Positions 2,313-43,903 of a DNA stretch of 64,000 nucleotides are shown piece after piece. Position numbers and translations under genes: made by a program. Numbering within the stretch: the stretch's first letter is position 1; every line of letters starts with the position of its first letter. The stretch is taken from assembly GCA_021296325.1 (NCBI GenBank), contig JAGWAR010000003.1:5796-69795 (forward strand), in the 5' to 3' direction. Below the pieces are notes generated by a model. That model saw nothing but the letters and a program-made list of their open reading frames with translations. It made no database searches and was not told the origin of the DNA. The DNA comes from Alphaproteobacteria bacterium. GTDB taxonomy: Bacteria; Pseudomonadota; Alphaproteobacteria; GCA-2746255.

Positions 2313-3632
2313 GTGACTCCCTACGAAATCCTGCAACTTCTTCGCAAGCATGAGAAATGGCTTGCCGGCAAGGCCGATGGCGAGCGCGCGGATCTGAGCC
2401 AGGCCGATCTGTCGGGCCTGGACCTTTCCAAGGCGGATCTGCGGAAGGCGCGCATGAATGGCGCCGTTCTCAAAAACTGCAACCTGACCGGCGCCAATCT
2501 GGAAGGCGCCAGCCTCTACGCGGCGAATCTGTCCGACTGCATCCTGAGAAAGGCGAACCTCACGAAGGCCGATTTACATGGCGTCGATCTCAAGAAAGCC
2601 GACTTGACCGAGGCCAATCTGGAAGGCGCCGACCTGCGGGAGGGCCGGATGTTCGACATGAGCTAGGGGGACGGCTGGAAAGCCGTCGGCAGCAACCTCG
2701 GGCAATCCGTCCTGAACGGCGCTATTTTGAAAAACGTCAACCTCACCCGCGCTAACATGAAAAAGGTGTCCGCCCTGGATGCCGACATGTCGGGCGCGAC
2801 GCTGGTGGGCGTCAAACTTCAGGAATCGGATCTGAAAGGCGCCAATCTAAGCAATTCAAACCTTGCAGGCGCCAATCTCGGGAATACGGACCTGTCCAAC
2901 TGCAATTTCGACGCGGCCAATCTCACCCGTGCCAACGTGGCAGGCGCAAACCTTGCCAACGCCAATCTGGAAACGGCGAACCTGATGGACGTGGAGATGG
3001 CGCTTTCCCATGTGAAGAACGCCAAGCTTCCGCGCACGCCCCCGAAGGGCAAGCGGCCGATCCAGGTTGTGCTGGAGGACCATTTGCGCTGGATCGAAAC
3101 CCGGGGCAAGGAAGGCGAACGGGCCAATTGCGACGGCTACGACCTTACCAATCTGGACCTTTCCGGCATCGACCTCAGCGGCGCCAGCATGAAAGGGGCC
3201 GACCTGTCTCGCGCCGATCTTCACGGCTGCACGTTCGAGCTTTCCGACCTGTCCCGCGCCACGCTTCAGAACACGAATCTGGAAGGCGTGAACATGGCCG
3301 GGACAAACCTGACGGAGGCCGACCTGACCGGCGCCAATTTTCATGGGGCGCGGCTTGTCTCGGTCGAGCTTCGCGACCAGGCGGGGCGCTCCACGGGACG
3401 AATGTGGCCCACCAATTTGAGCCGGGCGGCCCTGCTGGGCGCCTGCCTCGCGGAATCGGACCTGACGGGGGCCAACCTGCGCGGGGCCGATCTGCGCGGG
3501 GCCGATCTGCGCGGGGCCAACATGGCCGGGGCGGCCGTGGAAGGCGCCAATCTGGAGGGCGTGCAGTTCAAGGGCGTCATCGCCTTCGACGGCGTGATCG
3601 AGGACGTCGCAAAGCAAAAGCGGGCGGGTTAA
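2313..3632 (+). pseudogene. Pentapeptide-repeat protein paralogue 1 (PRP1), interrupted by an in-frame TAG at 2664-2666; otherwise a 439-codon frame
   Basis: Track ORFs 2181..2666 and 2727..3632 are in the same frame, separated only by one amber codon (..LREGRMFDMS*GDGWKAVGSNLGQS..). The start is placed at GTG 2313 by homology: (M)TPYEILQLLRKHEKWLAGK aligns with MSPKDIIRLLRKHERWLQGK (PRP2) and MSPHEIIRLLRKHEQWLQGK (PRP3). The body is A(D/N)LxG-type pentapeptide repeats. Confidence 0.7.
3477..3521 (+). repeat. Three tandem 15-bp units (ctgcgcggggccgat x2, ctgcgcggggccaac) inside PRP1 encoding (L)RGAD repeats
   Basis: Read directly: ..ctgcgcggggccgatctgcgcggggccgatctgcgcggggccaac.. translated GANLRGADLRGADLRGANMAG. 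Confidence 0.8.
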
Positions 3633-25446: not shown

Positions 25447-25989
25447 CTAGCGCCCTTCGGATGGCCGTTCCGGTGGGACTGCCGGACGAAGCCGCTCCAG
25501 TTCAAGGCGCTTACGGAAGCATTGTACGAGAGCGTAAAAGGAAAGAAGACCAAAAAGTACGAGGGCCGCGAAGAGAATTTCCCGCTTCCACGCCGCCGCC
25601 AGTTCAAATACGCCCGGCGCCAAGCCGAAGAGCCAGACCGCGGCGGCGGCCGTGCCAAGAAGCCCGATGGCGAGCAGCCCCTGGTAGCGGCGCATGGTCG
25701 TGCCCCAGCGCAGGCGCTCGGGTACGCCGAGCACGACGTGGGTAAGCTCGGAACGGTTGCGGTGGCGCTTGCCCTCGTCCGGCCACGGCTCCACCGTCTT
25801 GTCCCACCAGACGATGGGAATATTGGCATCGCGCAACTGCATGCGCAGCGTGAGTTCGGAGTGGGATTCGATCGCGCTTGTCAGGAGGGCGAGGCGCCGG
25901 TTCAGGTGCAGAATGCGACAGGTGAGCAATACCAACGCGACTGCGCCGAGTGCAGCCAACATCGCAACCCAAAGCGGAATGGAATCCAT
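25447..25989 (-). CDS. Hypothetical membrane protein (180 aa, ~3 TM segments)
   Basis: Hydrophobic segments at the N-terminus, around residue 104-126 and 138-158. Co-directional with the 81-aa ORF. No family assigned. Confidence 0.4.
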   Translation of the reverse strand: MDSIPLWVAMLAALGAVALVLLTCRILHLNRRLALLTSAIESHSELTLRMQLRDANIPIVWWDKTVEPWPDEGKRHRNRSELTHVVLGVPERLRWGTTMRRYQGLLAIGLLGTAAAAVWLFGLAPGVFELAAAWKREILFAALVLFGLLSFYALVQCFRKRLELERLRPAVPPERPSEGR

Positions 25990-26177
25990 CGCTCTTCTTT
26001 CAGAAACCGGCCTGTTTCACGGGGTCTTCGCATCAAAGATTACCCAGAGCTTTATGGAAAAGAAAGCGTTGCGAACATGCCGGCGCACCTGAATTCGGGT
26101 GTTAACCATACATTCCGGCACGAAACCGTCAGATCGGAAAAACGGGCTTGGCCGGCCCGCCAAGCCCCGTCGGAAAA

Positions 26178-26254
26178 TGGTCGGAGCGGCGGGATTTGAA
26201 CCCACGACCCCCACACCCCCAGTGTGATGCGCTACCAGGCTGCGCTACGCTCCG
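26178..26254 (-). tRNA. tRNA-Pro (anticodon probably GGG)
   Basis: Minus strand CGGAGCGTAGCGCAGCCTGGTAGCGCATCACACTGGGGGTGTGGGGGTCGTGGGTTCAAATCCCGCCGCTCCGACCA. 7-bp acceptor CGGAGCG/CGCTCCG, T-loop TTCAAAT, anticodon loop CUGGGGG, encoded CCA. Confidence 0.8.
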
Positions 26255-26315
26255 TCCATCAGAAATCGCCGCGCACTATAGGGACGTGCCCGGATCTTCG
26301 CAACGGATGGGACGC

Positions 26316-27062
26316 CTAGCTCCCGAGTTTCCGTAGCGTATTCCGCAATTCTTCGAGTTCGCCGAGGACGGCACGAAGTTCCTCGCGTTGCATCGAATTG
26401 GCCCCCGCACGAACGGTCGGCGGCGCGATGTCGCCGGAACGTTTTGCATCTTTCGGGCCGCCATTACGCAACAGTTTCTGCACGCCCATGATCGTATAGC
26501 CCTCCTCGTAAAGGAGGGAACGAATGCGGCGCAGCAGTTCGATGTCTTCCGGTCGATAGTAGCGCCGGCCGCCGCCGCGCTTCAGCGGACTGACCTGTGA
26601 ATACTTGCCTTCCCAGAAACGAAGGACGTGTTGAGGAACGTTCAGTTCGGAAGCAACTTCACTGATCGTGCGGAATGCCGATGCCGACTTGCTGCCTCGA
26701 CGCAAGGGCATAGGATTCAGCGATTCAACCATGAAAACGCCCCTCGAACCTAAACGCTGGAGCCCGGAAAGAGCCTTATTTATCCGATTCTTAAGGACCT
26801 GCGAGGCCCGGAAGACGAGGACCCGGCGCGGCAGAATCGGCACCTCTTCGCCGGTCTTCGGATTGCGCCCGATGCGCTGGCCTTTCTGGCGAACGGAAAA
26901 ACTTCCGAAGGATGAAACTTTGACGGCCTCACCCCGGACAAGCGCGTCCGAAACCAATTTCAATACCGATTCGACAAGTTCCGCCGACTCGTTCCGAGAA
27001 AGACCGATTTCCTGATACACCGCTTCCGTTAAGTGCGCGCGCGTAACTGTGCTTTCGCTCAT
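26316..27062 (-). CDS. ihfA: Integration host factor alpha fused in-frame to a MerR-family HTH regulator (248 aa single frame, no intervening stop)
   Basis: N-terminal 100 aa is IHF-alpha (..[34 protein letters not shown]). It continues without a stop into ..[44 protein letters not shown].. (MerR HTH) and a C-terminal helical region. The junction was translated codon by codon with no TAA/TAG/TGA. Confidence 0.7.
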
Positions 27063-27152: not shown

Positions 27153-28127
27153 CTACCAGCGAATCAGCGCCGCACCCCACGTGAATCCGCCACCCATCGC
27201 TTCGAGCAATAAAAGATGTCCGGGTTGGATTCGTCCATCTTCGGCGGCTTCCGCCAGCGCAAGCGGAATGGACGCCGCCGAGGTGTTCGCGTGTTTCTCG
27301 ACCGTGACGACGACCCGTTCGATCGGCAGATCGAGTTTCTTGGCCGTGCTGGTGAGGATGCGTTTGTTCGCCTGATGGGGAACGATCCAGTCGATGTCAT
27401 CGGGCTTCAGTCCGTTTGCGCCAAGCGCTTCGTGCACGACGTCGGCAAGGTTGACGACAGCGTGGCGAAAGACCTCGCGCCCGGACATGCGGAGGTGACC
27501 GACCGTCTGGGTAGCCGAAGGCCCCCCATCCACGTAAAGGAGGTCCCGGTAGCGGCCGTCGGAATGGAGGTGGGTCGAAATTATGCCCGGTTTTTCAGGG
27601 CCTGGCGCACCTTCCCCGGCCTGCAGCACGACGGCGCCGGCGCCATCACCAAACAGGACGCAGGTCCGCCGGTCCGACCAGTCCAGGATCCGCGAGAAGG
27701 TCTCGGCCCCGATGACCAGCGCCGCCTTCGCCTGGCCAGCCCGAATGAAATTATCGGCAGTGGCCAATGCAAAAATGAAACCGGAGCACACGGCCTGCAC
27801 ATCGAAGGCGGCGCCCCATGTCATGCCGAGACGTTCCTGCACCTGGGTCGCCGTCGAGGGAAAGGTAAAATCCGGCGTTGCCGTCGCCAGCACGATCAGG
27901 TCGATGTCCTTGATGTCCACACCGGCGTTGCGAAGCGCCGCCGTTGCCGCATGGGTGGCGAGATCGGCGGTGGTTTCGCCCTCAGCCGCGATGTGACGGT
28001 GTTCGATGCCGGTGCGCGCGACAATCCACTCGTCCGAGGTGTCGAGGGTCTTGGCCAGGTCCGAATTGGTGAGCACGCGTTCGGGGAGATAGGCCCCGCA
28101 CCCCATGATTCGTGAATGCCGGGTCAT
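27153..28127 (-). CDS. fabH: 3-oxoacyl-ACP synthase III
   Basis: 324 aa; catalytic Cys in ..[12 protein letters not shown].., conserved HQAN and C-terminal [13 protein letters not shown]. Confidence 0.9.
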
Positions 28128-29176
28128 GCGGGAGCCGCCGCTTTCGGCCGTGACATGTTGCCGGCGTCCAGGCTTCCGAAGTCACGGATGATCTTGTCGT
28201 TGAACCCGAAGGTCACCATGTCGATGGCGACCCCGATGGCGTTGGCGAAGCCCAAGGCGTCCGTGCCCCCGTGCGACTTCACCACGACACCGTTCAGGCC
28301 CAGCATCATGGCGCCGTTGTAGCGCCGGGGGTCGACCCGCTGGCGCACCTTGCGCAGGGTGGGCCGGGCCAGAAGGTAGCTAAGCCGCGAAAGCAGCGAG
28401 CTGCGGAAGGCCTCCGCCAGCACCTGCGTATAGAATTTCGAGACCCCTTCGGTAGCCTTGAGGGCCACGTTCCCCGTGAAGCCATCCGTCACGGCCACGT
28501 CCACCGCCCCCTCGAGGATGTCGTTCCCTTCGATGAAACCACAGAATTTTATCGGCAGGCCGCCTTCTCTCAGAATCGACGCCGCTTCGCGCAGGTCTTC
28601 GTGGCCCTTGAGTTCTTCCTCGCCGACGTTGAGCAGGCCGACAACGGGTTCCGGCAACCCAAGCACCGTCTTGGCAAATATGTTTCCCATGACGGCAAAC
28701 TGAACGAGGTGGCTGGCGTTGCATTCGAGGTTCGCTCCGAGGTCCAGCATGACGACGTCGCCCCGCATGCTGGGAAGGAAGGTCGCGATGGCCGGCCGGT
28801 CGATTCCGGTAAGGGTCTTGAGAACGAATTTCGCCATGGCCATCAGCGCGCCGGTATTGCCGGCCGAGACGATCCCCGCCGCCTCGCCTTCCTGGACGGC
28901 GTTGATAGCAAGGCGCATGCTGGATTGGCGAGCGTTACGTAACGCCATGGACGGTTTCATGTCGTTCGTCACGACCTCGCTGGTGTGACGAATCTCGGTA
29001 TGTTCGAGAAGCTGCGGATCCTTGGCGACAAGCGGGCGTAGCTGCTTTTCGTCGCCAAACAGGATGAAACGGACGTTCGGGGAACGCTGGCGAACCAGGC
29101 TGGCGCCTTCGACGACGATGCCCGGAGCGCGATCTCCACCCATCGCGTCAAGCGCGATCGTCAGTGCCGTATCCAC
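28124..29176 (-). CDS. plsX: Phosphate acyltransferase PlsX
   Basis: 350 aa; ..[12 protein letters not shown].. N-terminus. It overlaps the fabH start by 4 nt. Confidence 0.9.
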
Positions 29177-43154: not shown

Positions 43155-43456
43155 TGTCGGACGGGCAGCACTTGGGTGGAAAGCGCAAAAAACTACCATA
43201 TGTCGCATGGCCATGCCAGCCCACCCCCGGCCAGGCGGACGCGGAAACGGAGCCGCCCGGACGGGCGGCGGGACCGAATGGACAATGAAGGCCAGTGGAA
43301 ATCGGGGCGTGCGGCGCGCCTGAAAGAAAACAGACGCCTATTTTATTGATTTTGCTGTGAGAAATACCACGTTTTACTTTGATTTCATTGACAGCCAAAT
43401 ATTGCCATGCAACATATAGTCAAATACTCCGTTTCCAATAAACATTGCGCAAGTAC

Positions 43457-43903
43457 ATGAGCGACGACGCCGTCGAGAAAACGTCCCGTACGGAACTGCT
43501 TCGGATGGCCACCGAGATCGTGTCGGCCTATGTCGGCTGCAACAATCTCGACGCCGGGCGAATCCCCGAAGTCATCCAGCTGGTCTATGGTTCGCTCGAC
43601 TCGCTGAGCGCCGGCGGCGGCGGGCCGGAGACATCGCCGCCGCGGCCCATGGTTTCAATCCGCAAGTCGGTGACGCCGGATTACATCATCTGCCTGGAAG
43701 ACGGCAAAAAGCTGAAAATGCTGAAGCGCCACCTGCGCACGACCTACGGGCTTACGCCGGAGGAATATCGGGCCAAGTGGGGCCTGCGGGCGCATTACAC
43801 GATGGTGTCGCCGAACTACCCCGCCCAGCGTTCGGATTTTGCCAAGAAGATCGGGCTGGGCAAGCATGGCAACGCGAAGCGCGACCGCAAGGCGCGTAAA
43901 TAG
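43457..43903 (+). CDS. mucR: MucR/Ros-family zinc-finger transcriptional regulator
   Basis: ..ICLEDGKKLKMLKRHLRTTYGLTPEEYRAKWGL.. carries the Ros/MucR C2H2-like signature. ATG 43457 preferred over TTG 43445. Confidence 0.85.
   Translation: MSDDAVEKTSRTELLRMATEIVSAYVGCNNLDAGRIPEVIQLVYGSLDSLSAGGGGPETSPPRPMVSIRKSVTPDYIICLEDGKKLKMLKRHLRTTYGLTPEEYRAKWGLRAHYTMVSPNYPAQRSDFAKKIGLGKHGNAKRDRKARK

Follow-up and report, generated by a model that had tools for sequence, protein, structure and literature searches.

A 248-codon reading frame joining ihfA to a putative zapT gene in an alphaproteobacterial metagenome-assembled genome, probably through private loss of the ihfA stop codon

The ihfA-zapT gene pair and a single reading frame

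In Caulobacter crescentus, the MerR-family gene zapT (CCNA_01434) forms an operon with ihfA, the two genes are co-transcribed, and both products bind DNA (Ozaki et al., 2020, mBio, PMC7188993). ZapT binds to the replication-terminus region and links the terminus to the Z-ring via ZauP and ZapA, and ZapT homologues in other proteobacteria have been defined as the MerR-family gene flanking ihfA (PMC7188993). The binding of ZapT to ZauP occurs through its C-terminal domain, and ZapT tagged at its N-terminus (sfTq2-ZapT) was seen together with ZauP, as colocalised signals, in about 66% of Caulobacter cells (Ozaki et al., 2021, PMC7858052). A combination of an HU/IHF fold and a winged helix in one polypeptide is found in the HU-HIG family (PF18291), in which an HU domain is fused to a wHTH, Ig or glycine-rich motif. 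The literature search retrieved no described IHF-MerR fusion protein and nothing relevant on the ihfA/MerR/fabH/plsX context.

The locus described here lies in a window of 64,000 nucleotides, i.e., the whole stretch of DNA that was analysed, from contig JAGWAR010000003.1 of the alphaproteobacterial metagenome-assembled genome (MAG) GCA_021296325.1. The minus-strand interval 26316..27062 contains exactly one open reading frame (ORF), which starts with ATG and encodes 248 aa; from the ORF list, Pfam, NCBIfam and an AlphaFold2 model it is composed of an IHF-alpha part, a former spacer and a MerR-family/ZapT-like part. The junction codons in the raw sequence are AAG GCT CTT TCC GGG CTC CAG CGT TTA GGT TCG AGG GGC GTT TTC ATG GTT GAA, and re-reading of the codons revealed no in-frame stop between the ihfA part and the MerR part. 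The single 248-aa frame with a stop-free junction, which the first-pass annotation had proposed, is thus borne out by the ORF list and by the raw codons. A stop-free run over six spacer codons is unsurprising by chance, with an estimated probability of about 0.75 for random sequence. As read from the sequence, the sole oddity of the ORF is the sense codon at position 104, where every relative has a stop.

Both Pfam domains are near their full profile lengths, and the earlier reading of a complete IHF-alpha fold and a MerR helix-turn-helix (HTH) in one frame holds. Bac_DNA_binding (PF00216) covers residues 7-95 (profile positions 2-90 of 90, E 4e-25), and MerR_1 (PF13411) covers residues 132-200 (profile positions 2-68 of 69, E 4e-21). 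The assignment to IHF-alpha is based on the full-length match to PF00216 and on scores above the curated cut-offs for the NCBIfam ihfA equivalogs NF001401 / TIGR00987 (139.8 vs. 111 and 131.7 vs. 120.25 bits, respectively), but the protein does not have the stand-alone form of about 100 aa ending soon after helix 3, as the ORF runs to 248 aa. The second module has the N-terminal winged HTH and the possible dimerisation helix following it that characterise the MerR family (PF13411 and AlphaFold2 model). Membership in HU-HIG (PF18291) was considered and rejected, the score of 22.7 bits being below the cut-off of 26.2 and the match being confined to the HU fold. HU-HIG is a distinct and conserved family; the ORF in the window represents an IHF-alpha equivalog that stop loss has connected with the adjacent gene.

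The downstream MerR-family gene, putatively zapT, comprises codons 111-248 and the stop codon (26316..26732, minus strand). A 138-aa protein (P0001, NCBI MCE2509884.1) encoded on a contig of 84.7 kb, is 100% identical over its 138 aa to the C-terminus of the ORF, and it is the only product of this locus deposited at NCBI for the source MAG, begun at the internal ATG, which shows that the long ORF was not adopted in the annotation. The gene is situated directly downstream of ihfA on the same strand, and a consensus scan found no terminator-like hairpin between the ihfA and MerR halves. It thereby agrees with the published definition of ZapT homologues by synteny (PMC7188993), and on these grounds of sequence and gene order it is better described as a ZapT homologue than as a generic MerR regulator. 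Of the earlier label "MerR-family regulator", the family stands (PF13411), but a ZapT homologue is to be preferred over a regulator of the metal- or drug-type (PMC7188993). The nearest solved structures, the DNA-binding domains of CarH and LitR-type MerR proteins (E 1e-7), represent a generic match.

As in Caulobacter, ihfA and the MerR-family gene are direct neighbours with the same orientation, ihfA being the upstream one, and, like ZapT, the protein is predicted to consist of an N-terminal winged-helix domain and a C-terminal helix. It has 138 aa, vs. about 141 aa for Caulobacter ZapT, as implied by a G113-G141 C-terminal construct (PMC7858052). In contrast to the Caulobacter pair, the pair in the window lacks a separating stop, and its ZapT-like role is putative. 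Pfam matches to ZapA or ZauP (DUF4164) were absent from the 20 ORFs scanned in the window, which is only a fraction of the genome.

The stop codon in relatives and fused frames elsewhere

The 18 nearest loci were retrieved by three routes, namely, via MerR proteins (L001-L012), via a DNA pattern (L096) and via IHF-alpha proteins (L097-L101). The first group represents five lineages with MerR proteins that are 73-87% identical to that of the window, L096 does not differ from the L001 lineage in the part that was compared, and the nucleotide identity of L097-L101 to the window is about 85%, with amino acid identities within the range of the first group. The nearest relative is at a dS of about 0.45. 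In all 18 loci, ihfA has 103 codons and a stop at codon 104, and it is followed by an 18-nt spacer and a MerR gene of 138 codons in the same frame. The window resembles these loci (e.g., GCA_040220975.1) in gene order, gene lengths, the 18-nt spacer and frame, but differs from all of them at codon 104 (26751..26753, minus strand), the position of the ihfA stop, which is TTA (Leu) in the window vs. TAG or TAA in the relatives.

TAG is found in 15 of the 18 loci (L001-4, L008-12, L096-101; e.g., CGT TAG GGT TCG in L001), and TAA in L005-L007 (CGC TAA GGT TCG). The window has CGT TTA GGT TCG, and its codon 104 is one A>T change away from the TAA state of the L005-L007 type, with the middle base, window position 26752, being the single difference from TAA. 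An origin from the TAG GGT lineages via two indels (+T, -G) was also considered and rejected as less parsimonious than one substitution from TAA GGT (L005-L007). Among the Leu codons in the long ORFs of the window, TTA is used least, accounting for 17 of 13,872 codons (1.2 per 1000), or 1.3% of the Leu codons counted. In a genome with 62% G+C, this rarity fits better with a young codon derived from a stop than with a sense codon under long selection.

The former intergenic spacer, which was delimited by comparison with the relatives, now forms codons 105-110 (GSRGVF; 26733..26750, minus strand). Together with the stop codon it is 43-67% identical to the relatives, 7-12 of the 21 positions being different. 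Codon 104 thus changed within a stretch of 21 nt that has accumulated many ordinary substitutions. A second in-frame stop inside the spacer is present in three of the five lineages of L001-L012, and the window is without any. The spacer length is exactly 18 nt throughout the clade, with a freely diverging spacer sequence.

The pattern extends beyond the nearest relatives. The 80 more distant species representatives (L013-L092) were collected with tblastn, which favours single long alignments, and the set, which contains neither the source genome nor its closest relatives, is therefore biased toward same-frame pairs and shows a shared frame to be common without giving a frequency estimate; among the matches listed, ihfA and the MerR gene are in frame in all 80, and a stop separates them in 80 of 80. 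In a database of 5.8 billion clusters, the IHF-alpha proteins nearest to that of the window (17 distinct ones, 90-97% identity) have a length of 103 aa, apart from one of 101 aa, and in a search with the IHF part alone the best match (97% identity) was itself a protein of 103 aa. The relatives and the species representatives confirm the statement of the first-pass annotation that ihfA and a MerR-family gene downstream of it form a conserved pair in Alphaproteobacteria. The same annotation left the choice between a genuine fusion, to be given up if all close relatives had a stop at this position, and the destruction of the ihfA stop, be it by a point mutation or by a sequencing error. An evolved gene fusion would be present in orthologous loci, but the fused state occurs in none of the 18 nearest loci and in none of the 80 species representatives listed. 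The stop at codon 104 in 18 of 18 nearest loci thus speaks against the former option, and its presence in all relatives supports the latter. It is the shared frame of the two genes that makes the pair prone to an apparent fusion upon any change of the stop codon.

Neither the exact 248-aa protein nor a near-identical one was found in a collection of about 15 billion protein sequences, and the homology search with the full ORF yielded no match above 69% identity across both halves. No conspecific sequence was retrieved by the exact protein look-up, the full-ORF search, the IHF-only search or a DNA pattern search on JGI metagenome contigs. The last was anchored and allowed any codon 104 and any spacer, and it returned one contig (L096), which has TAG.

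The ihfA gene proper comprises codons 1-103 (26754..27062, minus strand), the full length of IHF-alpha in the relatives. The encoded protein is 91-95% identical to the 103-aa IHF-alpha proteins of L001-L012, the dN/dS of this half is 0.04-0.08 against every relative, and G2S is the sole private change at columns that are invariant in the relatives. The MerR-family protein has 138 aa in all relatives, and the dN/dS of the MerR half is 0.14-0.20. By these codon comparisons, both halves are under strong purifying selection and neither is decaying. Such constraint on each half is to be expected whether or not the genes are fused. The protein collection contained no IHF-alpha with 100% identity and no IHF-alpha product from the source MAG.

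ORFs with both domains do occur elsewhere. Among the best 120 matches to the full ORF, 70 have both domains, and in 24 of the 70 both are complete. They are 47-69% identical to the window ORF, nearly all of them occur as singletons, with one member and one contig each, and most stem from ENA metagenome assemblies. Frameshift-scrambled stretches are visible in many of them (e.g., P0002, P0005, P0040, P0048, P0070, P0073). Like the window ORF, sporadic fused ORFs such as P0003, P0015, P0029 and P0074 have the two domains in the same order, with 13-64 residues between them; unlike the window ORF, they belong to other lineages, none of which is a close relative, and many are frameshift-scrambled. 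The lineage of P0003, P0007 and P0036 was weighed as a possible clade with a conserved fusion. In the P0003/P0007 lineage the fused state is found in two independent assemblies (L093, L094), vs. a third member, L095, which is indel-scrambled and which, after correction of the frame, has a stop 2 nt before the MerR ATG. Taken together, the sequence comparison shows that apparent IHF-MerR fusions arise repeatedly via error or mutation, as the genes are adjacent and often in frame, and it does not show a conserved architecture.

Two further observations concern the quality of public sequences. L098 has, after the MerR gene, an unbroken gene for a hypothetical protein of 181 aa (about 2609-3154), which is split or truncated in L097, L099 and L101. 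The latter are sister long-read contigs whose IHF-alpha is identical or nearly so, and, as judged from the sequences, the broken gene points to indel errors in the ENA assemblies concerned. P0044, an IHF-MerR composite of 274 aa with part of the MerR N-terminus missing, is listed in a set of eukaryotic proteomes (eukprot), and it is probably a bacterial contamination of that set.

Origin and product of the read-through frame

From the sequence comparisons, the locus is probably an ordinary alphaproteobacterial ihfA-zapT operon, except that one substitution, confined to this genome, has removed the ihfA stop. The starting state would have been two genes in the same frame, 21 nt apart including the stop, and one base change at window position 26752 would have converted codon 104 from TAA to TTA. 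A ribosome starting at the ihfA ATG would then translate what used to be the spacer, six codons in all, and go on to the end of the downstream gene. The resulting protein of 248 aa would comprise the body of IHF-alpha, about 22 residues of flexible linker, the winged-helix domain and a C-terminal helix. We infer that the stop loss is a genuine mutation of recent evolutionary date, that it has not been selected but is close to neutral or slightly deleterious, and that both products are translated. Against a real stop loss it may be said that base 26752 has been read in one genome only and that the searches for conspecifics gave no match.

An error of consensus or base calling, or the call of a minor allele in a MAG of mixed strains, would mean that the true codon 104 is TAA and that two normal genes are present. 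Such an artefact is rather unlikely, although it is the alternative to be taken most seriously. The observed codon is one base away from the TAA GGT TCG of L005-L007, the sequence comes from a MAG, none of the relatives shares the fused state, many of the public fused ORFs are singletons with visible frameshift scars, and neighbouring genes are split in long-read assemblies of relatives (L097 and L099 vs. L098). However, the base quality of the window looks sound, as it has a coding density of 88%, long intact ORFs of up to 1110 aa and not a single N, which argues against an error-ridden assembly. In addition, the change is a substitution and not a homopolymer indel, and the spacer around codon 104 holds many evidently real substitutions. 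Consensus substitution errors are in general far rarer than the real divergence of about 11-14% from the nearest relatives, and, in view of usual assembly error rates, we judge a real substitution to be likelier than a consensus error.

In the AlphaFold2 model of the 248-aa ORF, which is based on an alignment of 36 sequences, two modules are predicted with confidence. The IHF-alpha module has helices at residues 8-19 and 23-42, a beta arm and a helix at 88-105; the MerR module folds as a winged helix (133-200), which is followed by a long C-terminal helix (223-247) with a pLDDT above 84. Residues 105-126 (26685..26750, minus strand) have pLDDT values below 50 and are predicted to be disordered, and the model thus predicts a flexible tether of about 22 residues between the folded modules. 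A fixed orientation of the domains relative to one another is not predicted (pTM = 0.42).

The internal start of the downstream gene has been kept. A Shine-Dalgarno-like GAGGGG, read from the sequence at 26740..26745 (minus strand), precedes the internal ATG by 7 nt, and most relatives have GGAG at the equivalent place. The retention of the motif and the ATG suggests that independent initiation has been retained as well, and the free 138-aa protein is probably still made. A free IHF-alpha of 103 aa, in turn, could not be made from the window sequence. IHF-alpha is an important nucleoid protein, and a genome without free IHF-alpha would be unusual a priori; a tblastn search of the 64-kb window revealed no second copy of an IHF/HU or MerR gene.

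A functional fusion favoured by selection, in which IHF-alpha is tethered to a ZapT-like dimer, for example coupling DNA bending to terminus organisation, appears very improbable. In its favour are the completeness of both domains and the purifying selection on each, the long predicted linker, which would make the arrangement sterically feasible, the sporadic occurrence of complete two-domain ORFs elsewhere (24 of 70, including the independently fused L093 and L094), and the co-transcription of the two genes, the products of which are both DNA-binding (PMC7188993). However, conservation of the fusion is zero among the 18 nearest loci and the 80 species representatives listed, the joining codon is the rarest Leu codon and one step from a stop, the internal Shine-Dalgarno-like motif and ATG are kept as in the unfused relatives, and the constraint on each half would be the same without a fusion. 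Nothing here suggests any selection for the fusion. An early pseudogenisation of ihfA, with the stop loss as the first lesion of a gene being lost, would be consistent with the lack of a deposited IHF-alpha for the MAG, as if annotators had treated ihfA as disrupted, but it is least credible of all, as the IHF-alpha dN/dS is 0.04-0.08, the start is intact, a frameshift is absent, just one substitution is private, and the Pfam and NCBIfam models are matched over their full length with scores that exceed the cut-offs.

The most far-reaching reading, which is very unlikely on these same data, is that the read-through is real and expressed and that all IHF-alpha is made as a chimera of 27 kDa attached to a ZapT-like dimer. 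If this were true, a DNA-bending nucleoid protein would be physically coupled to the linker between terminus and division ring, which would represent a natural experiment in the rewiring of chromosome organisation, and perhaps one of several independent fusions of this gene pair that occur sporadically in metagenomes. If the frame is real and expressed, the organism would be without free IHF-alpha, a modest curiosity regarding the tolerance of IHF-alpha for C-terminal cargo. The importance of the locus is mostly practical and concerns annotation, including the relabelling of the downstream gene as a ZapT homologue. One base change is sufficient to turn a same-frame pair 21 nt apart into an apparent two-domain "fusion protein", and composite ORFs in MAGs should be compared with relatives before they are read as a domain architecture.

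By analogy, the fusion is plausibly tolerated, as tailed IHF-alpha proteins exist in other Alphaproteobacteria and as sfTq2-ZapT, which is extended at its N-terminus, colocalised with ZauP (PMC7858052). The tailed proteins (P0094, P0101, P0105, P0106, P0112, P0119) are IHF-alpha proteins of 136-154 aa that are 72-84% identical to the IHF part of the window ORF, and their C-terminal tails of 35-50 residues, following a conserved ...LKNRIN, are of low complexity and either acidic or rich in Gly/Ala/Pro. To our knowledge, low-complexity C-terminal tails have not been described for alphaproteobacterial IHF-alpha.

Genomic neighbourhood

The gene order on the minus strand is plsX-fabH-ihfA-merR-tRNA-Pro(GGG). 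The gene plsX (28124..29176, minus strand) was identified by Pfam FA_synthesis and fabH (27153..28127, minus strand) by Pfam ACP_syn_III. The order plsX-fabH-ihfA-merR, with products of 350, 324, 103 and 138 aa, is shared by the relative loci that reach far enough upstream. The tRNA-Pro(GGG) gene predicted by ARAGORN (26178..26254, minus strand) is immediately downstream of the ORF. Consensus scans of the minus strand revealed a promoter-like site (TTGCGA, 17 nt, TATAGT; 26275-26303), which begins 13 nt past the ORF stop, and a GC-rich terminator-like hairpin of 9 bp after the tRNA gene (26144-26167). The ihfA-zapT transcript may run on into the tRNA-Pro gene.

Just beyond tRNA-Pro, an ORF of 180 aa without a Pfam match is present (25447..25989, minus strand), and L005 and L006 contain a gene of the same length at the equivalent position. 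From this positional agreement, its product looks like a conserved hypothetical protein of the clade. The Ros/MucR family is typical of Alphaproteobacteria, and, in keeping with the alphaproteobacterial origin of the window, a zinc-finger regulator of this family is encoded on the opposite strand of the window (43445..43903, plus strand; PF05443, E 5e-45).
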